A stretch of DNA of 64,000 nt from Candidatus Gottesmanbacteria bacterium GW2011_GWA2_43_14 (GCA_000999095.1 LCFP01000002.1:5736-69735), one strand, 5' to 3'. Positions 2,791 to 14,876 are shown, counted from the first letter of the stretch. Numbers and translations: made by a program. Notes: generated by a model not told the origin, from the letters alone.

Positions 2791-4134
2791 ATGAATAAAT
2801 TATCAATAAAATCATGGTACCTACTTTTCCCAATCTTGTTATTAGCAGTTTCTCTAAGACTGTTTAATCTGCCAGAAAGGGTCATCTTCGATGCAGACCA
2901 GGAATTTGCCGCCACATTCGCTTATGAAGTTCTAAAGATATTTCCGGTACGACTTATTGGCCAGGGTTTGTCCGTCCAAAGCCTTTTTATGGGGCCTTTA
3001 TATTTTTACTTTCTGGTTCCTTTTTTTGCAATTTCCCGTTTGCATCCTATAGGCGGTTATATAGGTTCAATTGCTTTGGGCCTTATCACTATTTCATTAT
3101 ATTTTTGGGTATTCAAATCCGTTTTTGGTACGAAAGCAGGCCTCATTGCTGCATATCTTCGCACCATCCTGTTTTTTTCCGTTCAAACGGATTTACTGAT
3201 GACTCCAGCTTTTTCAAGCGATCTTGCGGTTGTCCTTACTTGGTATTGTTTTTATAAATACTGGCATGATAAACACTTTTATCTTTTACCCTTAAGCTTT
3301 CTGTTCGGTCTCTATACCAGTTTTCATCCCATATTATTCCCTTTTTATTTTATTTTACCGGTTTTATTTTTGTTAAAAAGACATTTTCCCCCACCGAAAT
3401 ATCTGATCCTGTCTTTTTTATGTTTTTTGCTTCCGCTTTCACCACTTCTGATTTTCGAATACTTCCACAATTTTACGGAAATAAAAGCACTTTTTTTAAT
3501 TAAGAATTCAGGTAGTTCAGAAATAAAAACTGTTTCTATACTGATTGATTACCTGAAAATAATATTTATTTATCCGGTCAGAATGCTCGGCATATCATTA
3601 CCCGATAAAATTGTTTTAGTCCTGGCGTTTATATTTTATTCCCTCAGCAGTATATTTATTGCCCGAAAAATAAGTTTTTGGAAACAATCATTTCACCGGA
3701 TTTTTCCTTTAACGACTTTTATTATTTTTCTGCTGTATTATTTTATTCTCCCTGTTCATGTACCTGATTATTATTTTTCAGCCGTTTTTACCGTTATTTT
3801 TATTTATTTTGCAGGAAATATAAGTATTATGTTAAAAAAAAAGCAATTTATTTCTGCATTTTTCCTGCTTTTATTAATTACTCTTACCAATTTTGTCAGG
3901 CTTCACCAGTCATTCACAAGTCCTTTTCGCGCATCACTCAAAGACAAAGAAACCGTAATCAGAACAATTAGGCGTCTTTCTCCGGATAACAATATGAAAG
4001 TTTACTACGATACTGATCTTGGCTTGCACTTCGGTTTAGGCTATCTGCAGAGATATTACGGCATGGAAGCGAACGGCGGTCCGGGCACACCTGAATACAT
4101 TATAGTTATTCCCTCATCCAGAAGGAAAAATTAA
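2791..4134 (+). CDS. GT-C family membrane glycosyltransferase (ArnT/PMT-like, GT39/GT83-type)
   Basis: 447 aa and strongly hydrophobic. N-terminus MNKLSIKSWYLLFPILLLAVSLRLFNLPERVIFDADQ resembles ArnT/PMT-type lipid-linked sugar transferases. Confidence 0.5.
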   Translation: MNKLSIKSWYLLFPILLLAVSLRLFNLPERVIFDADQEFAATFAYEVLKIFPVRLIGQGLSVQSLFMGPLYFYFLVPFFAISRLHPIGGYIGSIALGLITISLYFWVFKSVFGTKAGLIAAYLRTILFFSVQTDLLMTPAFSSDLAVVLTWYCFYKYWHDKHFYLLPLSFLFGLYTSFHPILFPFYFILPVLFLLKRHFPPPKYLILSFLCFLLPLSPLLIFEYFHNFTEIKALFLIKNSGSSEIKTVSILIDYLKIIFIYPVRMLGISLPDKIVLVLAFIFYSLSSIFIARKISFWKQSFHRIFPLTTFIIFLLYYFILPVHVPDYYFSAVFTVIFIYFAGNISIMLKKKQFISAFFLLLLITLTNFVRLHQSFTSPFRASLKDKETVIRTIRRLSPDNNMKVYYDTDLGLHFGLGYLQRYYGMEANGGPGTPEYIIVIPSSRRKN

Positions 4135-4383
4135 CTATCTTATTCATCGGGAAGTGTAGGATTAGTGGTACTTCATCCTTAGCAATATTTAATACTGCTT
4201 ATTGAATGAAGTTAGAATATTCTATGGTACTAAAACATTCTATAAATGCAGATAATTTTAAATTAGTTATAAAAGCTTGCGCAGAGCATAGAGACAAAAA
4301 AATATTTTGAACTTCCTGGAAGTGCATTCACAAAAGAGAATGCAGTTATAGATTTATAATGCCCTATAGTATAATTCGACTTT

Positions 4384-5349
4384 ATGAATACGGAAAATCC
4401 CAGAGCACGGGGGTTACATCATCTTCAGCCGTCAGATCCTGTAATGGATCAGTGGGAAAAAATCGGTTTAATTGAACCTGATTTGGCACTTGTAAGGCAA
4501 TATGCATCAGAACTTGATGATTTTATTTATTTTTACCATCAAAAATTTAACTCATGGGTACAGAGTTTTGGAGGAAAATCATATTCTGAGATCACCACAA
4601 TTTCTCAGCATATGCTTCTCAAATTGTTGGGGACAACATCAAATGAAGACAGAGAAAAGTTTTCCTCCACAGCCTTTCCCAAATTAGCCCACCTCACCTG
4701 GAGAATTGTTTCAGCGATTGATGATTTTGCTGACAGACAATCTACGAACGCGGCAGATTTAGAAATCCTTACTGACAGCGAAGGAACAAAAGTAGCTGAC
4801 ATGATCAAGGAAATAACCAGAATTCCCAATTCCGACAAAGCCGGTCTTTGGTTTATTAAGCAAACACTTATATATATTGAAAAACATGAAATAGCTGTAT
4901 TAACCTTTGAGGAGGCAAAAGGTGCAAAGGAAAAAACAACAGGTATATTTACTCAGGCTGTAACTTTGGGCGCGTGGCCATTTCTTATGGTTAATTTCCC
5001 CCGACAAATGTCCCGGTTCCCCATTAAAAAATTTGTGCAGCATTCCATATCAGGTTCTCTGATTGCACAATGCCTGGATGATATAGCGGATTTCAGGAAT
5101 GATTTAGGAAATTCTGATTCGAGTTCTTTACTGATTTCGGCCGCAGGAAAAGCCGGAGAAAAAGACATATTAATGGATATGCTAAAGACTGGAATTCCGA
5201 TTACAATTGCAGAATTAATAAAGCGTAAACTGTATACACCAATTATATTTACGGAATATTTTCAATCTCTGTTAAATAAAATGCCTCAAGCGCCTTCCGA
5301 TATGAGATCATATTTTACGTATCAGTTTTTCAACCTTGAAAGTGATTGA
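4384..5349 (+). CDS. Class I isoprenoid-synthase-fold protein (polyprenyl synthetase / squalene-phytoene synthase-like) with two DDxxD motifs
   Basis: AIDDFAD at aa 112-116 and LDDIAD at aa 231-236, about 119 aa apart. This matches FARM/SARM spacing. GSLIAQCLDDIAD resembles the GxxFQxxDDxxD second motif. A TATAAT at 4370-4375 lies only 8 nt before the ATG. Confidence 0.4.
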   Translation: MNTENPRARGLHHLQPSDPVMDQWEKIGLIEPDLALVRQYASELDDFIYFYHQKFNSWVQSFGGKSYSEITTISQHMLLKLLGTTSNEDREKFSSTAFPKLAHLTWRIVSAIDDFADRQSTNAADLEILTDSEGTKVADMIKEITRIPNSDKAGLWFIKQTLIYIEKHEIAVLTFEEAKGAKEKTTGIFTQAVTLGAWPFLMVNFPRQMSRFPIKKFVQHSISGSLIAQCLDDIADFRNDLGNSDSSSLLISAAGKAGEKDILMDMLKTGIPITIAELIKRKLYTPIIFTEYFQSLLNKMPQAPSDMRSYFTYQFFNLESD

Positions 5350-5571
5350 TCCGAGATTAATTTCCAAGACGGTCTTGTAAATTTAGATTCAACACGATGT
5401 GTTCCTCTGTTTCTTATACTAAAGTTTTTTTAACATACGATCGGCTATCTTTTGTAAACCGCCTTGTACCGAATTGTACAGGCTATTGGACGAAGTTCTA
5501 ACATATTATTTATTTTTCAGCTCTCTTTTCGGTGCGAAGTGATTAGCTATGATTTGTGCTCCCGACCTTAA

Positions 5572-6003
5572 CTATATTTTTTTACCACTCACATCACCAA
5601 TCGGCTCGACTATTTTCCAGTAGGAATCCTTTCGGACGACTTTGCCCTTTTGAAACTCCCAAAGATCACAACCTCGCACATTCAAAATATCCCCTGATGT
5701 TGAAGTTCCAGTGAGCGTCCATTCTGATACACCCGTATCTGCATATGCTGACACCCAATGTCTATCGTCTCCGTAGTGAACGTCAGGAATACCTTCGAAT
5801 CGACTGGCAAGAGCTTTACGCACCTGGTCCTTGCCGACGAAGCGTTGTCCCCAGGGTTCAGGGCCCCTTGGAAAATCAAAGGAGCAGTCATCAGAGAAGA
5901 ATTCCATAATCGCATCGAGATCATGATTATTGAATGCTTCAAGAATTTGCTTTAAAGTCCCGACTGTGATGTCCCCATGGTTTATATTTCTTTTAACTGA
6001 CAT
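5572..6003 (-). CDS. SnoaL-like / NTF2-like (ketosteroid isomerase-like) small enzyme
   Basis: 143 aa; the motifs TLKQILEAFNNHDLDAIMEFFSDDC and the WEF...GK...SYW pattern are typical of SnoaL_2/NTF2-fold proteins. Local GC is clearly higher than the flanks. Confidence 0.55.
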   Translation of the reverse strand: MSVKRNINHGDITVGTLKQILEAFNNHDLDAIMEFFSDDCSFDFPRGPEPWGQRFVGKDQVRKALASRFEGIPDVHYGDDRHWVSAYADTGVSEWTLTGTSTSGDILNVRGCDLWEFQKGKVVRKDSYWKIVEPIGDVSGKKI

Positions 6004-6144
6004 TATCTAATTTTAACAGATTTTCCTCCGAGTTGCGGACAGTATTGAGAACTTATATTTTAGCCTGTCAGATAAGCTTATTTAATTATATGTACAGGCT
6101 ACTGGACGATGTTGTAACTTATTTCGCAAAGCAAGTTGGGTCAA

Positions 6145-6618
6145 TTATCTTTTTATTTCTTGCTCTACTTGTAAAACATACGTATCTCCACTGGAAGTTA
6201 TTATTCGTAAGAACCATTTACCATCTTTTGTAAGTATTCCGTCAGCGTTCTCTCCGTTTGTCATATTTAAAACATTAAACGTCGCTTTGATATTTTCAGG
6301 TCCTTTTTGATTATAGAATGTAAAATTTCTTGTTGATTCATCTTTTAATCTTTCTTCGTAAACAATAATTGCACCTTCGTATTCTAAACCTTTTAAATCC
6401 GAATCTTCAACTTTGTTTATTCTCAATGCTTGAGGTAAAGAAGTAAACCCATGAAAACGAAGGTTGGTTTCAAAACCCTGAATAAGTCTGTCTTGCCCGT
6501 AAGTTTCGCCAATGTTTTTAGTTTTTGTTCCATCAATCGGAGATAATCGGTTAAATTTATCAATGCTTTGATATAAATTTGATAAATTATTTTGAATAAT
6601 TGCTGGTCTTATATCCAT
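6145..6618 (-). CDS. Hypothetical protein
   Basis: 157-aa ORF with AT-rich codon usage like the host. No recognisable motif. Confidence 0.35.
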   Translation of the reverse strand: MDIRPAIIQNNLSNLYQSIDKFNRLSPIDGTKTKNIGETYGQDRLIQGFETNLRFHGFTSLPQALRINKVEDSDLKGLEYEGAIIVYEERLKDESTRNFTFYNQKGPENIKATFNVLNMTNGENADGILTKDGKWFLRIITSSGDTYVLQVEQEIKR

Positions 6619-6938
6619 AATTTTGGTCTTTTAAGAATAATCTAATACTTATACTATAATTTGTAAAGCGAAATAAACGAAATAAATTACAGATATAAAT
6701 TGATATAGTAGCGTCTATAAATTTGTACACCTTATTTAACGATATTCAAACCGAAACTTTGGACTATTGGAATAATATTTTCCTTAATTTAAAAGACTAT
6801 ATTTGTACTAGGCTCTGAAGTTAGGATCTCTTTAAAAATACTATTAGAACGAACCACATAATTACATTTCTCCTATATTCAAATATATTAATTGCTTATC
6901 CTATTTAAATAAAATAATATCGAATTAAATATTTATAA

Positions 6939-8147
6939 TTGAAAATGAAAAATGAAATAAATATATGGTCAATAAAGAATAAAAAAAATAAATTTCTTCA
7001 GATCAAATATTTCTTAATATTATTAGCGCTACTTTTGATCGTATTCGCTATCTATTTCCAAATTTTAAATAAAATTAATTTATTAACGATTCAATTTCAA
7101 ACTACTAATCCATCTCCTACTATTAATCCGGAAGAAGTAAAAAAGGTTAAAAAAGAAAAGTACGTTCAAAATATTCTTTCGTCTATGACACTTGAAGAAA
7201 AGATCGGACAGATGATTATGTGGGGTATAAATGAACCTGTATTATCTTCCGAATCAGCATCTATGATAGAAGATACTCATGCAGGAGGAGTGATAATAAT
7301 GATTAATAAAGATCAAGTATTCACACCACAACAGATCAACAAGCTAACTCATCAAATCAAGTATTTAAATAACAAAATACCGCTTTTTATTGCCATTGAT
7401 GGAGAAATCGGAATAATAAAATCTAAAATATCTGGTTTTGAAAATTATAATCAGTTTCCAGAATATATGGATGACAGTAAATTCTGCTCCGAAGTATCTG
7501 ATATATCAAACTTTCTTTATGATAATGGAATTAATGTTAACTTTGGAATTATTGCTGATATTGGTTGGAATCAAGGTTTTATCAAATACCGAACATATGG
7601 AAATACTCCTGAAAGTGTAAGAAACAGAATTACTACAGCAATTGATTGTTCAAATAATAATTTACTTATAACTGTAAAACACTTTCCCGGGCATGGAAGA
7701 ACTGTAGTAGATTCTCATTATACTTCTCCCATTATTGAGACCGACTATGACAAATGGCTAAAAACAGATAAAGTTCCTTTTCAAGAAGCTATAGATAAAA
7801 AAGTGGATCTCGTTATGATGGGACATTTGATTTATAACAAAATCGCTAGTGAACCAGCCAGTTTATCACTGGTTCATAATAATAATGTCCGTCAAATGGG
7901 TTTTGATGGAATTATTATTACTGATGATTTGGGTATGTTAGAAAGTAGTGGAATAGAACCTAAAGAAGTTCTAAATAAGGCAATTAATGCTAAAAATGAT
8001 ATTTTGTTATATGTAAACCATAGGCTTGATGCGAATGAAATAATCAATCAAATCGTTAATGAAGTTGAAATTCATAATATTTCTGTAAATAGAATAAATG
8101 AAAGTGTTCAACAAATATTAAAAAGTAAATATTCAATAATTGATTAA
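6939..8147 (+). CDS. Glycoside hydrolase family 3 N-terminal domain protein (NagZ-like beta-N-acetylhexosaminidase), membrane-anchored
   Basis: EEKIGQMIMWGI and KHFPGHGRTVVDSHYTSP (the GH3 KHFPGHG motif). N-terminal TM segment. Confidence 0.7.
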   Translation: MKMKNEINIWSIKNKKNKFLQIKYFLILLALLLIVFAIYFQILNKINLLTIQFQTTNPSPTINPEEVKKVKKEKYVQNILSSMTLEEKIGQMIMWGINEPVLSSESASMIEDTHAGGVIIMINKDQVFTPQQINKLTHQIKYLNNKIPLFIAIDGEIGIIKSKISGFENYNQFPEYMDDSKFCSEVSDISNFLYDNGINVNFGIIADIGWNQGFIKYRTYGNTPESVRNRITTAIDCSNNNLLITVKHFPGHGRTVVDSHYTSPIIETDYDKWLKTDKVPFQEAIDKKVDLVMMGHLIYNKIASEPASLSLVHNNNVRQMGFDGIIITDDLGMLESSGIEPKEVLNKAINAKNDILLYVNHRLDANEIINQIVNEVEIHNISVNRINESVQQILKSKYSIID

Positions 8148-8267
8148 TTACCTAAATTGTGCTCTTTCAGTCGTTGTTTAAGATTTTCAGAGTATCCGAT
8201 GTAAATCCAAGAAGGGAAATTTATACTTTGTAAAACATAAACGTAGTGAAACTTAAACATAAAAATA

Positions 8268-8306
8268 GGGACGCACCAGCCGGTGCATCCCTCGCTTTAT
8301 TGTTTT
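8268..8306. terminator. Bidirectional intrinsic terminator-like hairpin
   Basis: GGGACGCACC-AGCC-GGTGCATCCC, a 10-bp stem with one mismatch, followed by CGCTTTATTGTTTT on the + strand. An A/T-rich run also precedes it on the other strand. Lies downstream of the GH3 gene. Confidence 0.45.
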
Positions 8307-8703
8307 AAATACAGTTTCATTATTATACGGATTGGATTCCTGACTTCGGACATTTAGTGCCCCAAAGACCGTAATTTCTCCAGTTGTCCACAAAGTTTTG
8401 GATCTTCAATTGTGGTTTCCACAAATCCAGTTTCTCCAGTCTTCAGAATGGTTATCTGTGGGCTAAAATCTTTTGAGCCACTTTTAAGAGGTGTCCGAAG
8501 TCAGGTGACTTTCTCTTTTTTAATAGACCAACACCGGATAGTTTGTTGATATGAAAGGTAACGGTGGGCTGCCGCAGGGATAAGTGTTCCACAATTTCGG
8601 TAACCGTTGCTTACCTTCCGATTTTTTTAAGGTAATCCAAAATGGTCAGCCTGGACGGAATACTGGCTGTTTCCAAACACTGTCGGCATCTCTGGTGAAT
8701 CAT
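8297..8703 (-). pseudogene. Disrupted paralog of the ArsR-family regulator gene at 11086..11385 (frameshifted, with the MITE inserted)
   Basis: The minus strand gives MIHQRCRQCLETASIPSRLTILDYLKKIG (compare CHKCLKNLMEPSRLKIFDYVQKS). After a frameshift it gives RQPTVTFHINKLSGVGLLKKRK (compare RQPTVTFHVNKLAEAGLLQKKK), then the MITE, then NPIRIIMKLYLKQ* (compare EVIIQTKHL). Confidence 0.5.
8339..8506. mobile_element. MITE-like non-autonomous element, 168 bp, with perfect 14-bp terminal inverted repeats (CCTGACTTCGGACA ... TGTCCGAAGTCAGG)
   Basis: Perfect 14-bp TIRs read directly from the sequence. The element interrupts the reading frame of an ArsR-family paralog, and its 168-bp length equals exactly 56 codons. 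No internal ORF. Confidence 0.55.
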
Positions 8704-8748
8704 ATTTATTGGTATCTATCGGAAGAATATTATTTAAACACCAAAAAG

Positions 8749-9672
8749 TCAATTATTATAGCTTATCAGGAGAGCTCCGTCATCGTAAATCATACCCACT
8801 CCCGGAGCGTAGCGTTTGGTTGAAGGCGGAGTTTCTTCAACATAAAGTACATTATTAAAAATTCCTGCGGGAGTGTTATAATTTTGTTCAAATCTGATAT
8901 GGGCAGCCCTGTCCATAGCTATACCTGGAGCTACTTCCTGCTGGTAAGTTTGTCCCACAGTTGGATTAGCCGGCATGACAATTCCCGGTTTATTTGATCC
9001 TTCTCCGGCCCTCCAGGCACCGGAATGACCGACAATTTGCCCGCCGGAATAGATATCAACGTCCTCTCCGTAATAGCAGACCGTACCGTCCGGGGCGGCA
9101 ACAAAGAAATTACGGGAAATTTCAATAAGATTCCCGTTATTGGTTTCATATTCTTCCACTACCCTGGTTGTGATTCCCGCAACGACTTCAGTCTGATTTA
9201 ATACTGAAAATTTTACCGTAAAAGTTCCGTCGGATATGGTATTAACTTTACCTACCGGAAGGGGAAAATAAGGATTGGTTATATTTAATGAGAAAGGTCC
9301 GTTGGTTGGGTCGCAGATCGAAATATCCAGTTCTCCGGTTGCAGGTTGAGTAGGCTGGGTACCGGTTACCGTAGGAAAAGGGCTTGAATTTTTATTGTAA
9401 TTATTCAGCCAGATAACGTAATCAAGACCGTCAACCTTTCCGTTATTGTTGAAATCTCCGGATAGCCTGCCGTCGCTGACTGTTTTGTTATAATTTTTAA
9501 GCCAGATAACATAATCAATTCCATCCACTTTGCAGTCACGGTTTGCGTCCCCCGCAAGCTCCGTAAGGCAGGTTTGGGCCTGAACTTCAGGAACCGGTTT
9601 ATTCAGAAAATAGAAATCTGTTAATAAAATTATTAATGAAAGAAGAATGTAGGCAAATATTTTCCTAAACAT
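8749..9672 (-). CDS. Secreted protein with a dockerin type I repeat pair
   Basis: Signal peptide MFRKIFAYILLSLIILL...AQ. Two dockerin repeats: DANRDCKVDGIDYVIWLKNY and DFNNNGKVDGLDYVIWLNNY. Confidence 0.6.
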   Translation of the reverse strand: MFRKIFAYILLSLIILLTDFYFLNKPVPEVQAQTCLTELAGDANRDCKVDGIDYVIWLKNYNKTVSDGRLSGDFNNNGKVDGLDYVIWLNNYNKNSSPFPTVTGTQPTQPATGELDISICDPTNGPFSLNITNPYFPLPVGKVNTISDGTFTVKFSVLNQTEVVAGITTRVVEEYETNNGNLIEISRNFFVAAPDGTVCYYGEDVDIYSGGQIVGHSGAWRAGEGSNKPGIVMPANPTVGQTYQQEVAPGIAMDRAAHIRFEQNYNTPAGIFNNVLYVEETPPSTKRYAPGVGMIYDDGALLISYNN

Positions 9673-10049
9673 GTTTATAATTCAGTATCACAAATTATTT
9701 TTTTAATTTCAACAAGTTATTTGAAAAAGTAACAAAAGGGGGCGCAAAAGGGCAAAAGGGGACGGTTCTTAAATAGCCTCGTTTTTGATAAAATAGGAGT
9801 ACCGGATTTTAAACGATACTTGGTACTCGCTTTATATATAAATGATAAAGGTAGTTGCTATGTTTTTAAAATAGTCAAGATAAAGCTAATAATGAATCAT
9901 ATAACTTTAATCATTTATTGGTAAAAAAAACTATTGAGATATCTTGTACAAAGATAGCTGTAAAGTCATTATTCGAAGCTAAATATATTAAAACGTAAAT
10001 GAGTGAAATACAGTGAGGTTAATTTATTAGTTTAATATTCGGTTATTAG

Positions 10050-10123
10050 TACCCCGTGCCGGATTCGAACCGGCGATTCTCTGGCTGAAAACCAGATGTC
10101 CTGGGCCGCTAGACGAACGGGGC
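10050..10123 (-). tRNA. tRNA-Glu (anticodon UUC)
   Basis: Reverse complement GCCCCGTTCGTCTAGCGGCCCAGGACATCTGGTTTTCAGCCAGAGAATCGCCGGTTCGAATCCGGCACGGGGTA folds as a cloverleaf with anticodon loop TTTTCAG. CCA is not encoded. Confidence 0.85.
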
Positions 10124-11085: not shown

Positions 11086-11385
11086 ATGCTTGTGGGTGAC
11101 GATAGATTAAAATCTATATGTATGAATAAATATTGCCATAAATGTCTGAAAAATCTGATGGAACCATCCCGTTTGAAGATTTTCGATTATGTGCAGAAAT
11201 CTACAGACAGAGTAACCCTGGGGACTCTGGTCAACTTTACCAGACTGAGGCAACCGACAGTTACTTTCCATGTCAATAAGTTGGCGGAAGCGGGACTGCT
11301 GCAAAAAAAGAAATTCGGCCGCGAAGTCATTATCCAGACAAAACACCTCCCCGAACGCTGCACCACCTGTCCCATTTTTCACTAA
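11086..11385 (+). CDS. ArsR/SmtB-family HTH transcriptional regulator
   Basis: About 90 aa; an N-terminal CxxC (CHKC) precedes the wHTH LRQPTVTFHVNKLAEAGLL. A degraded paralog lies at 8297..8703. Confidence 0.55.
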   Translation: MLVGDDRLKSICMNKYCHKCLKNLMEPSRLKIFDYVQKSTDRVTLGTLVNFTRLRQPTVTFHVNKLAEAGLLQKKKFGREVIIQTKHLPERCTTCPIFH

Positions 11386-11408
11386 CTGTTCCTGGAAGTA
11401 TCTTATTT

Positions 11409-12284
11409 TTAACGCCGGTAAACAGGCCTCTCATCGCGGCCGAAGAAGGAGAAAACCGGATTATATGGAGAAGAATCTTCTACTGATACAGTCGGTTTAG
11501 GAAAAAGACTGATTGAGCGTAAAGGCTTTAATGTAGGCAAAACAAAAGGAGTGGGAGTCGGTAATGCGCCGTAATAATGAATTTTACTGTCTCCACCTAT
11601 CAGCAGGCCGTATATATGCTGACTGTCATCTGTTGCCTCGGTGCTGCCCCGGGCAGAGTTGAAGTTCCAGACGAAAACAGTTGAATTATCGGAAGTTAAG
11701 TCGTTGAGATAAATTCCGTTCTGCCAGTTTCCCGCGATATCCCTTGCCTGTCGGGAGACACGAATTTGGTCGACGCTTCCTTTAAAGCTGTTTCCGGATA
11801 AAAATGAACTGCTTCCACTCCCGCCGAATATAATTGATGGACCAAGCGGTTTAAGCTGGGTAGCACCGCCCGCGCTAAAGCTGGAAACACCGTTGATGAA
11901 AATCTTAGTGGAAGAAGATGATATGGTAACGGCAAGATGGTGCCAATTCCCGGGGGATAAATTTCCGGTGGTCATCTGTCTCATGGCGTTTACAGCATAG
12001 GAATAAGTTAACTGGAGAGATCCGCCGTTTATGGATATCTGATAGTTAGGTGAAACATTGCCTTCTGCTCCTATTGTTAAAAGATGCTGCAGACCGCTGA
12101 GGCTGTTGGGTTTTATCCAGGTTTCAAAGGCAAATTCCGCAGGAGAGGATAAATCATTGTTTTCAGCCTTAATAAACCCACCATTGAGTTCCAGATAGTT
12201 GCCGCTGGGAGGTGCTGCATTAACCAATCGGGGATGGAATAAAGCTAGCAAAAGAACAGCAGAATAAAACAATATTTTGATCAT
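11409..12284 (-). CDS. Secreted LamG / concanavalin A-like lectin domain protein
   Basis: Signal peptide MIKILFYSAVLLLALF...VNA. Start trimmed to the internal Met at 12284. The segment LELNGGFIKAEN...FAFETWIKPNS...HLLTIG is typical of Laminin_G_3. Confidence 0.55.
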   Translation of the reverse strand: MIKILFYSAVLLLALFHPRLVNAAPPSGNYLELNGGFIKAENNDLSSPAEFAFETWIKPNSLSGLQHLLTIGAEGNVSPNYQISINGGSLQLTYSYAVNAMRQMTTGNLSPGNWHHLAVTISSSSTKIFINGVSSFSAGGATQLKPLGPSIIFGGSGSSSFLSGNSFKGSVDQIRVSRQARDIAGNWQNGIYLNDLTSDNSTVFVWNFNSARGSTEATDDSQHIYGLLIGGDSKIHYYGALPTPTPFVLPTLKPLRSISLFPKPTVSVEDSSPYNPVFSFFGRDERPVYRR

Positions 12285-12350
12285 TTTTCTGGGGGGCAGC
12301 GTATAAGAAGGCAGAAGAACCACCTTACTTTATATAAAACGTCCAACAGC

Positions 12351-12773
12351 ATGTCAAGTCACGGTTTTGGTGGAATATCGGGTATAATAAAAAAAATGGA
12401 ATGGTATCCCGCGACTGATATCAAACGAGAGCTGGGTAAAATCGTCAGGGAATTGGAACTTGACTATATTAAATTAAACAAAATTGTCTGTTACCGTTCC
12501 CACGGATCCACGTCCCGTGCCAGGGCCAGGATTTGGAGCTTTCCCAAGGTCTGGCAAATGGCATTGAAGCTGCCTCCGTATTATATTATAGAAGTTATCA
12601 GTGAACGGTTTGACCGGCTGAACCAGCAGGAAAAAATACGGACGCTGATCCATGAACTTATGCATATCCCGATGAATTTTTCCGGTAGTCTCCTGCCGCA
12701 CCGCACCAGAAGCGGACATCTGGAGAAGAAAGTGGAAAAATTCTACAGGCTTCTGGCTAATAAAAGAATATGA
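12351..12773 (+). CDS. Putative zinc metallopeptidase (HExxH)
   Basis: IRTLIHELMHIP contains an HExxH motif in a small protein, which is SprT/DUF45-like. The family is uncertain. Confidence 0.35.
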   Translation: MSSHGFGGISGIIKKMEWYPATDIKRELGKIVRELELDYIKLNKIVCYRSHGSTSRARARIWSFPKVWQMALKLPPYYIIEVISERFDRLNQQEKIRTLIHELMHIPMNFSGSLLPHRTRSGHLEKKVEKFYRLLANKRI

Positions 12774-13450
12774 TCATGCTCATCCACGGTAATGACAATG
12801 ACTCTTCACGGAAAAAACTGCAGGAAATTATTTCCGGAAGGGATGCGGAAAGTATGTATTTCGATGGAGGTAAACTGGAATTAGCCGATCTGCTGCTTGC
12901 CAATGAAGCAGCCACGCTTTTATCAACAACCAAAACCATTATTATTGAAAACTTCTTTAAAGGCACAAAGCAAAAGGCAAAGGAAGCGATTCTGGACTAC
13001 TCTTTAAAAAATTCCGGTGACAACCTGCTTATTTTTTGGGATGATCATGAAGTCGGCGTCCAGTCAAAAAAGTTTCCGGCCAAACAGAATTTCAAATTCG
13101 ATTTCCCCAAGCTCCTTTTTAAATTTCTCGATGATATAGGCCGTCAGAAGACTTCTGTTATCCTTACTTACTTTCACGAGCTGTTAAAAGAAAAAGAAGT
13201 CTCACTGATTTTTGCCTTGATAATCCGTCAATTCCGTTTTCTGTTAATGACGGCTGACTTAAATCTGAAGGAAGGTTTGCCTTTAGCCTCCTGGCAGGTA
13301 GCGAAATTCCGTCAGCAGGGTAGGGCTTTCTCGCATGATGAACTGATGCAAAATTACCGCGGCCTATTAAATATCGATTACCGGTTGAAAAACGGCCTTA
13401 CTCCGTTGAAGCTAGACCAGCTTATTGACATCTTTCTTATCAATTTATAG
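12770..13450 (+). CDS. holA: DNA polymerase III delta subunit (HolA)-like
   Basis: N-terminus MIMLIHGNDNDSSRKKLQEII resembles HolA. The start overlaps the upstream stop (ATGA). Confidence 0.45.
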   Translation: MIMLIHGNDNDSSRKKLQEIISGRDAESMYFDGGKLELADLLLANEAATLLSTTKTIIIENFFKGTKQKAKEAILDYSLKNSGDNLLIFWDDHEVGVQSKKFPAKQNFKFDFPKLLFKFLDDIGRQKTSVILTYFHELLKEKEVSLIFALIIRQFRFLLMTADLNLKEGLPLASWQVAKFRQQGRAFSHDELMQNYRGLLNIDYRLKNGLTPLKLDQLIDIFLINL

Positions 13451-13496
13451 GATTAATGGTAATATCATATTTTTTCATAAAAGGTAAAAAGGCATA

Positions 13497-14876
13497 TTGA
13501 CAGACATATCAATTGACACTTCAATTTTCCGGGATTACGACATCCGGGGCATCTATCCTGAACAAGTCAATGAACAGACTTTTCTCGTCATTGGCAAGTC
13601 TCTCTCCTCCTTTCTTAAAGTGGATAAAATATCAGTTGGCTTTGACGCCCGCCTGTCATCAGAAAAACTGTCTCAAAGCCTGATATCGGGAATAACCTCG
13701 ATGGGAACGGATGTTGTCACTTTAGGACAGATATCAACGGAAATGAATTATTTTGCATCTGGCAGGTACGGTTTTCCGGCATCTGTCATTGTCAGCGCCT
13801 CACATAACCCTCCGCAATATAACGGTCTGAAAATAGTTAAGAAAGGGGTTGTGCCTTTACACGGGAGTTTTGGTCTGCCCGAAATCAAAGAACTTGCTAT
13901 AATCCAAAAATTTAACAACGCGACGCGAACGGGCAAAGTAATTAGTATGGACATTAGCGATGATTGGTTGGATCATCTGCTTTCTTTTATTGATCCGAAA
14001 AAATTGGCCGGCATGACGGTTGTGGTGGATACGGGAAACGGTATGGGGGGACCGACCTGGGAAAAAATCAACCGCAGATTGCCTTCCATTAAAATTATTC
14101 CGCTTTTTTTTAAACCGGACGGCCATTTCCCCAACCATCTGCCGGATCCTTTAAATCCCGATAATCTGGTCGCTTTGCAGGAAAAAATCAGGGTTACTAA
14201 AGCTGATGCAGGAATTGCCCTGGACGGTGACGCTGACAGACTTTTTACCGTAGATGATAAAGGAGATCTTTTATCCGGAACCTTAACCTGTGCCATGCTT
14301 GCCGAACATCTGCTTCTGACCAGAGGTTCAGGACCGGTTTTATACAGTATCACCACCGGAAAAATAGTGCCTGAAACAGTTAAAAAGCATAAAGGCATAC
14401 CATTCAAAACACGCGTCGGCCATTCTTTTATCAAAACTGAAATGAAAAAAAGGCATGCCCTTTTTGCCGGAGAACATTCGGGCCATTTTTATTTCCGGGA
14501 TAATTATAATGCTGATTCAGCCTCGATAGCCGCGCTTTTATTTTTGGAATTTCTTGCCGTCAAAGGCAAAAAACTGTCGGAATTGCGTAAAACCTATGAA
14601 AGCCATATCAGCTCGAGTGAAATTAATTTTCTGGTTGACGATACGGAAAAATTTCTCAATAATATAAGGAAGCACTTCGCCGGAAAAGAGCTTGATCTGA
14701 TTGACGGTTTGACTTTGGACGAAGGCAGCTGGTGGTTTAACGTGCGTGCTTCCAAGACTGAACCTTTAATCAGATTAAATATGGAAGCAGACAACCCTCT
14801 TCTTTATAAGCAAAAATATAAGGCGATTAATACGGTTATCAGGCAGCTCGGTGGTACTCCCAAAATTGAAACATGA
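13497..14876 (+). CDS. Phosphomannomutase/phosphoglucomutase
   Basis: Active-site SASHNP motif (SVIVSASHNPPQYNG) and metal-binding site GIALDGDADR. Confidence 0.85.
   Translation: MTDISIDTSIFRDYDIRGIYPEQVNEQTFLVIGKSLSSFLKVDKISVGFDARLSSEKLSQSLISGITSMGTDVVTLGQISTEMNYFASGRYGFPASVIVSASHNPPQYNGLKIVKKGVVPLHGSFGLPEIKELAIIQKFNNATRTGKVISMDISDDWLDHLLSFIDPKKLAGMTVVVDTGNGMGGPTWEKINRRLPSIKIIPLFFKPDGHFPNHLPDPLNPDNLVALQEKIRVTKADAGIALDGDADRLFTVDDKGDLLSGTLTCAMLAEHLLLTRGSGPVLYSITTGKIVPETVKKHKGIPFKTRVGHSFIKTEMKKRHALFAGEHSGHFYFRDNYNADSASIAALLFLEFLAVKGKKLSELRKTYESHISSSEINFLVDDTEKFLNNIRKHFAGKELDLIDGLTLDEGSWWFNVRASKTEPLIRLNMEADNPLLYKQKYKAINTVIRQLGGTPKIET

Follow-up and report, generated by a model that had tools for sequence, protein, structure and literature searches.

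A perfect 14-nt inverted repeat beside a broken regulator gene raises the question of what kind of event is recorded there: the arrival of a small transposable element that split the gene, or the remains of a larger insertion sequence (IS) that decayed where it stood. The locus belongs to a 64,000-nt stretch of DNA, the whole of which is called the window here, from the groundwater bacterium Candidatus Gottesmanbacteria GW2011_GWA2_43_14, a CPR genome, which agrees with the streamlined genome suspected in an initial annotation made from the sequence alone. That annotation described a MITE-like element within a decaying paralog of an ArsR-family gene. The feature is real and transposon-derived, and its kind is already known. 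Its best overall explanation, to which we assign a probability of about 65%, is a decayed IS1634-family IS with an in-situ history, situated at the breakpoint of a truncated ArsR copy. The comparisons described below (features in Table 1) indicate that what is recorded at the element is a deletion or rearrangement associated with an IS, and not a clean frame-splitting insertion.

Table 1. Features in and around the inverted repeat, in window coordinates.
Feature	Position	Strand	Detail
Truncated GIY-YIG nuclease gene, 38 codons	8144..8260	-	Pfam PF01541, 30.7 bits, profile positions 2-33 of 78
Intrinsic-terminator-like hairpin	8267..8292	-	11 pairs, 7 of them G-C, then ATTTTTAT
42 nt between the right end of the IS and the terminator	8297..8338		Unlike the missing ArsR 3' end
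Internally deleted IS1634-family IS (by alignment), 167 bp	8339..8505	-	IS positions 1-15 joined to the final 152 nt of the IS; transposase read from the minus strand
Right terminal inverted repeat (IRR), TGTCCGAAGTCAGG in minus-strand reading	8339..8352	-	Begins one base past the transposase stop codon
Transposase 3'-end remnant, about the last 45 codons (~137 nt)	8354..8490	-	Stop TAA at 8356-8354; tblastn
Left terminal inverted repeat (IRL), CCTGACTTCGGACA in minus-strand reading	8492..8505	-	Same 14-mer opens the IS in L018 and L025
ArsR-type pseudogene, codons 1-66 only	8506..8703	-	TAA at 8613-8611 (codon 31); cut at the IS end
Block of dockerin-like gene (8749-9672), leader and ArsR 5' part	8507..9715	-	93.6% DNA identity to L023, L024 and L012
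Resident ArsR-type gene, intact, 99 aa	11086..11385	+	Convergent with LamG_3 gene

The 167-bp element and its parent insertion sequence

Both arms of the inverted repeat (CCTGACTTCGGACA / TGTCCGAAGTCAGG) are perfect, as originally annotated, and the left one was correctly placed at 8339-8352; the right one, formerly put at 8493-8506, occupies 8492-8505, and the unit measures 167 bp, not 168. It is the sole perfect 14-nt inverted repeat with a spacer of 20-300 nt in the window, compared with a mean of 0.125 in block-shuffled controls (at least one in 3 of 40 shuffles). Two assemblies of different source (ENA ERZ978281 and JGI 3300025308) agree base for base over positions 8094-8794, so that an artefact of one assembly can be dismissed. 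The unit folds into a strong hairpin (RNA fold z = -4.8 and -3.8 vs. shuffles). Rfam searches, run at gathering thresholds over the whole window and in E-value mode over 8100-8800, returned only tRNAs and noise, and the interior 48-codon frame, a fragment too short on its own, had no match in Pfam.

A protein search with the same 48-codon open stretch on the minus strand gave a single match, the first homologue of the element interior: a 50-aa protein (P0003) on a short contig (L017), beside the istB gene of an IS21. The differences between the window and this contig, read by eye, fall mostly at synonymous third codon positions of the interior frame and therefore suggested that this sequence is coding. 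When metagenomes were scanned with a codon-degenerate pattern for EDPKLCGQLEK, another contig emerged, L018, in which the matching sequence is the C-terminus of a 495-aa ORF, followed by the stop codon, one base and then TGTCCGAAGTCAGG; a scan of viral contigs with a degenerate codon pattern gave no match. The reverse-complement 14-mer (IRL, at 1844-1831 on the minus strand of L018) lies 80 nt upstream of the ORF, and the two arms bound an element of 1583 bp. This ORF scores 292.8 bits against the NCBIfam model of the IS1634 family transposase (NF033559, profile positions 33-457 of 483; curated cut-off 100 bits) and 34.1 bits against Pfam DDE_Tnp_1 (cut-off 23 bits). An identical transposase with the same 14-nt repeats (IRL at position 111) is present at a second site with other flanks on contig L025, and L017 carries a diverged copy of the IS whose terminus abuts istB. 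The placement of IRR relative to the stop codon is the same in the window, L018, L017 and L025, and after ...GTCAGG each of these four continues into a different flank (for L025, judged on 3 nt of flank), which fixes the end of the IS. Other copies of the termini, for which the initial annotation had recommended a search, are thus present at other sites (L018, L025 and L017), and the autonomous partner that it envisaged corresponds to the full IS with the same terminal repeats on metagenome contigs L018 and L025.

A different boundary was considered and rejected: a 6-bp duplication TGACTT, with one copy in the left arm and one immediately to the right of the right arm (a 165-bp excision), conflicts with the terminus ...GTCAGG as fixed by three other loci. 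On L017 (1-931), the IS1634-type right end is 9 nt from the stop codon of istB (IS21 family), an arrangement that looks like an IS in or next to an IS.

The IS1634 family, defined by De Palmenaer et al. (2008; PMC2266710) and including IS1634 of Mycoplasma mycoides and IS1549 of Mycobacterium smegmatis, comprises elements of 1500-2000 bp with termini C-----YT and AT-rich target duplications of 5-6 bp, although IS1549 and IS1634 make long, variable ones of 8-514 bp (PMC2266710). The parent IS (L018/L025) fits this description by its length of 1583 bp, its single 495-aa ORF encoding a DDE transposase above the NF033559 cut-off, and its perfect 14-bp repeats, which start with CCTGACTT and agree with C-----YT. 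Its relatives (66-80% protein identity) display the two behaviours described for the family, with target duplications that are either 6 bp and AT-rich (ATATTT, L021) or long (45 bp in L019, 92 bp in L022); the IS of L018 has none within ~270 nt of flank. The 45-bp direct duplication is perfect (L019 2866-2910 / 4513-4557, NCBI assembly GCA_021787635.1), and the two copies of the 92-bp one are 98% identical (L022 233-324 / 1921-2012). Unlike the family members named above, the elements described here probably belong to CPR bacteria: one transposase homologue is labelled by its source as IS1634 family of Ca. Roizmanbacteria, and the full copies L018 and L025 are on short metagenome contigs, whereas the window keeps only the 167-bp stub, without a transposase. 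Public data hold 3499 homologous transposase proteins at E <= 1e-30, many of them on contigs of ~1.58-1.6 kb, about the length of the IS, which looks like a repeated element breaking assemblies.

In a global alignment to the 1583-bp IS of L018, positions 1-12 of the element correspond to IS 1-12 and positions 13-167 to IS 1428-1583; when the first 24 nt of the element are aligned separately, positions 1-15 are identical to the IS. The 3' part is identical at 140 of 153 positions (91.5%, with one 1-nt gap). At the protein level, residues 452-495 of the L018 transposase match 8488-8357 (tblastn, 77% identity, E = 3e-16), P0003 and the L018 C-terminus both align to the transposase remnant, and tblastn with the L018 transposase detected no further transposase-like sequence in the window. 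The remnant is frameshifted by a 1-nt deletion between 8457 and 8456, the only frameshift at the locus. The missing ~1416 bp lie between imperfect direct repeats matching at 9 of 12 positions, CACTTCTAAGAA immediately inward of the left end and CACATCTTAAAA close to the transposase 3' end, and the internal junction of the unit is GGACACCTCTTAAAAG (junction string CTTCGGACACCTCTTAAAAGTGGC). As we read the alignment, the repeat at the deletion endpoints would represent microhomology of the kind that slippage deletions use. Judged by sequence comparison, the unit is an internally deleted, non-autonomous copy of the 1583-bp IS1634-family IS that has kept both 14-bp repeats and one further left-end base. 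It could not move by itself, and could be mobile only with a matching transposase supplied in trans.

A transposed miniature element or decay in place

Bacterial MITEs are non-autonomous deletion derivatives of insertion sequences (a general class; e.g., PMC3852290). The 167-bp unit has the size and organisation of one (below ~500 bp, with terminal inverted repeats and no transposase, only ~45 frameshifted codons of its tail), and it resembles bacterial MITEs further in having repeats identical to those of an autonomous IS, no coding capacity, a long hairpin, and a position in or next to a gene. It is possible, if doubtful, that we are dealing with a true MITE, i.e., a 167-bp derivative that entered the ArsR gene by means of a transposase supplied in trans from a full-length copy, one flank being rearranged later. 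The small, non-coding, strongly hairpin-forming unit is of the right type, and the internal deletion spares exactly the left repeat, both repeats having survived. These repeats are identical to those of the L018/L025 IS at 28 of 28 positions, against 8.5% divergence of the interior, as selection for mobility would produce, though with a probability of still ~0.08 by chance (no change in 28 nt). The abundance of the IS family, evidently active in CPR metagenomes to judge from the homologues and IS-length contigs counted above, and the existence of different insertion sites point in the same direction.

Nevertheless, several results argue against this possibility. The window contains no second copy of the unit, either by a repeat search allowing up to 2 mismatches or by blastn. 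A scan for terminal-repeat pairs (12-nt core of each arm, 124-154 nt gap) covered 185,579 species genomes and the JGI metagenome collection, neither of which includes the source genome, and found no related pair; in the metagenome collection it returned nothing, not even the source locus. A target duplication, which the initial annotation had advised looking for at the insertion, is absent from the window copy when the flanks are compared for suffix/prefix matches of 4-600 bp at >=85% identity; the immediate flanks, AAGTCA and AATCCA, match at 4 of 6 positions. In addition, the 9/12 imperfect direct repeat at the junction explains the deletion endpoint by itself. The unit differs from bacterial MITEs in this lack of a target-site duplication and of any other copy found, and in an interior that is plainly the 3' end of a transposase gene and unlike a streamlined MITE core; transposition of the unit in its 167-bp form may never have taken place. 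Thus, of the MITE-like element proposed at the outset, the transposable-element origin is retained, since the repeats are those of a real IS (L018, L025, L017), whereas its status as a transposed, repeated unit is doubtful.

The sole match of the scan in the genome collection, from Mesobacillus subterraneus, was discarded as a tandem array of ~52-nt hairpins that shares only CTTCGGACA...TGTCCGAAG with the query; this 12-nt core is probably common to the array and the IS repeats by chance. The array itself (L011 2885-3140, NZ_RSFW01000027.1) is intergenic and REP-like, with palindromic units of ~52 nt (CTTCGGACATTTTC.CGGCATCATCGCGGGATTTTGTCCGAAGTCATGCCA).

The truncated ArsR-type gene and its breakpoint

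Read on the minus strand from 8703 to 8506, the sequence beside the element encodes MIHQRCRQCLETASIPSRLTILDYLKKIGR, a stop, and ATVTEIVEHLSLRQPTVTFHINKLSGVGLLKKRKS; the residual frame enters the IS for 18 codons and stops at 8454-8452. The relatedness of this frame to the intact resident gene at 11086-11385, asserted in the initial annotation, is borne out by BLASTP (47% identity over 64 aa, E = 4e-20) and by Pfam matches to HTH_20 (40.8 bits, cut-off 27) and HTH_5 (38 bits, cut-off 22), both above cut-off and denoting a winged helix-turn-helix. The relation is confined to the protein level: a nucleotide comparison of 8297-8703 with 11086-11385, recommended at the same time, detected no similarity by blastn with 7-nt words. 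Nor does the ArsR frame contain the frameshift previously ascribed to it, as both conserved segments share one frame and the defect is a single in-frame TAA (8613-8611).

The closest intact relative, an 88-aa protein (P0001), is identical to the window frame at 64 of 66 residues (97% at the protein and ~94% at the DNA level), has GAA (Glu) in place of the TAA, and continues past the breakpoint with ...KKRKSGRQVFVKTFYKSVKCLQCILHT; the pseudogene is without the last 22 codons of P0001. A decaying second ArsR-type copy is therefore present as described, but its paralogy is doubtful, given 97% protein identity to a gene of another organism vs. 47% to the resident one. The window frame and its intact relatives are members of the ArsR/SmtB family by their HTH_20/HTH_5 matches and have in common the recognition-helix segment LRQPTVTFH-NKL, but in the window the gene is dead: codon 31 is a nonsense codon, and the sequence is cut after codon 66. 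The intact relatives deviate from the family in being very small (87-99 aa) and in carrying a CxxC pair at each end and not the classical ArsR metal sites.

These small ArsR-type proteins with N-terminal and C-terminal CxxC pairs occur in three lineages (window 11086-12323; L012 790-1945; L015 4006-5188), and all three genes are convergent with a Laminin_G_3-domain gene, forming a conserved pair. A four-Cys metal site is possible in the proteins of this pair.

The position of the breakpoint is defined by contigs L012, L013 and L014, which align to the minus strand of the window at 91-94% DNA identity from inside the dockerin-like gene and stop abruptly at 8507, a single base away from the outer boundary of the right-hand repeat arm, i.e., the IS end. 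The remaining 70 nt of the intact ArsR gene are found nowhere in the window. The stretch beyond the element, 8297-8338, has no similarity to the intact ArsR 3' end (L012 987-1059) in DNA or protein, and the only weak local match of that 3' end is at ~8235-8219, inside the GIY-YIG fragment. Since ArsR homology reaches no further than the element and the sequence beyond is unrelated, the gene terminates there and is not split by the element; the reading frame said to be interrupted by the element is ArsR only on the side from 8506 upwards, and 8297-8338 does not resemble the 3' end of the intact gene with its 94% identity. Further along, the GIY-YIG fragment and the GH3 gene, which are convergent, have overlapping stop codons in the palindrome TTAATTAA, and the GIY-YIG gene seems to have been truncated by the event, of whatever kind, that brought the GH3 gene to this place.

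A clean insertion into a complete ArsR gene, with 8297-8338 as its remaining 3' end, has the attraction that excision of the 167 nt (8339-8505) restores an open frame that ends in ...KKRKSNPIRIIMKLYLKQ and a stop at 8299-8297 (TAA), directly upstream of the terminator hairpin. We regard it as very improbable: the intact relative, with ~94% identity as far as the breakpoint, goes on from there with SGRQVFVKTFYKSVKCLQCILHT, the 42 nt share nothing with this 3' end, and no target duplication accompanies the element. Moreover, excision would leave a frame with 10 residues fewer and no C-terminal Cys pair, a CxxC motif that is conserved also in P0002 and in the resident gene. This in-frame excision, with its ending ...NPIRIIMKLYLKQ and a stop, was rejected on comparison with the intact orthologue. 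Least credible of all is an origin without this type of mobile element, i.e., a chance inverted repeat, a structured RNA (e.g., a retron-like msr/msd with inverted repeats) or an IS21 end, for which a fold more stable than shuffles and the location of the first homologue (P0003, L017) next to IS21 istB might speak, but against which stand the absence of Rfam matches of any weight, the homology of the interior to the C-terminal coding region of an IS1634-type transposase, and the fact that the repeats of L018 and L025 bound a single IS1634-type transposase gene without istAB, the IS of L017 merely abutting istB.

Proposed history and a probably exchanged block

Under the preferred reading of a decayed IS1634-family IS, an IS of the parent family would first have inserted into the ArsR gene downstream of the dockerin-like gene, an arrangement that a related Gottesmanbacteria population retains with the gene intact. 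A rearrangement at the right end (an adjacent deletion or a recombination with another IS copy) would then have removed the ArsR 3' end together with the target duplication and brought in unrelated DNA, namely the 42 nt, the terminator and the GIY-YIG gene fragment. Loss of a target duplication is a classical signature of IS-end deletion or of recombination between IS copies. The middle of the IS would subsequently have been lost by a slippage or microhomology deletion, and the ArsR stub would have gained its GAA->TAA nonsense mutation. This order of events is one that we infer, and the unit could have come already shortened, as a MITE mobilised in trans. As far as can be told from the sequence, nothing at the locus is functional now.

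The relatives of the adjacent block suggest where the ArsR copy came from. Contig L023 matches window positions 9715-8507 over its positions 3552-4760, and is 99.5% identical to L012 where the two overlap. The gene order of L023 is tRNA-Glu, greA, metK, dockerin-like gene, intact ArsR, LamG_3 (minus strand), PhageMetallopep and holA. Along the plus strand of the window, the order is GH3, GIY-YIG fragment (-), terminator (-), the 42 nt, IS stub (-), ArsR stub (-), dockerin-like gene (-), tRNA-Glu (-), a 93-aa ORF (-), a methyltransferase, the resident ArsR, LamG_3 (-), PhageMetallopep, holA and PGM. Compared with the 93.6% identity of the block, the PhageMetallopep and PGM (phosphoglucomutase) genes of the window (12487-13897) have only ~70% identity to their syntenic relatives, and the LamG_3 and holA genes have no blastn match on L023-type contigs. 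This jump in divergence (93.6% vs. ~70%) suggests a recent exchange of the block between two related Gottesmanbacteria populations, whose samples may be related to judge from the accession series, and argues that the ArsR copy was probably acquired or recombined in, not duplicated locally. The dockerin-like gene and the ArsR stub would thus probably be a xenolog, recently exchanged with a related population. We favour transfer into the window genome, because the window has its own syntenic ArsR-LamG pair and the extra copy is the broken one.

Several further features of the region were recorded. A motif of ~42 nt, TTTTATCAAAA..GGCTAT.T.AGAACCGTCCCCTT, occurs twice in L023 as a direct repeat (1540-1584, after tRNA-Glu, and 3507-3551, before the dockerin-like gene), and the two copies flank greA and metK; in the window the motif is present once (9754-9793), and neither of these genes is found at this place. 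In the window, L012 and L023 alike, an ORF with a PhageMetallopep domain (window 12351-12773, plus strand) lies between LamG_3 and holA. The stretch of the GH3 (glycoside hydrolase family 3) gene (6939-8147, plus strand) has 29% G+C, compared with 42% for the whole window, and all of 4000-10000 is below average; this low-G+C region, adjacent to tRNA-Glu (10049-10123), is possibly a foreign island.

More far-reaching interpretations, which we consider unlikely, would place the 167-bp unit in an active MITE family of a CPR-restricted IS1634-type lineage and/or attribute to IS ends the capture of the tRNA-Glu/dockerin-like/ArsR block from co-occurring Gottesmanbacteria. If such IS-end capture were true, it would amount to IS-assisted gene flow between ultra-small, supposedly streamlined genomes.

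The main value of the analysis is a correct annotation: the 601-bp 'intergenic' gap at 8148-8748 consists of an IS stub, a dead truncated regulator and a truncated GIY-YIG gene. Beyond that, IS1634-type elements are present in CPR (Microgenomates-group) lineages and probably cause typical IS-associated rearrangements there, two relatives of the IS carry the unusual long target duplications of the family, and co-occurring Gottesmanbacteria populations probably have a recently exchanged block in common. The locus is an ordinary kind of genome scar, unsurprising to a specialist, and provides a data point on the mobile-element load of reduced genomes and on gene flow among them.
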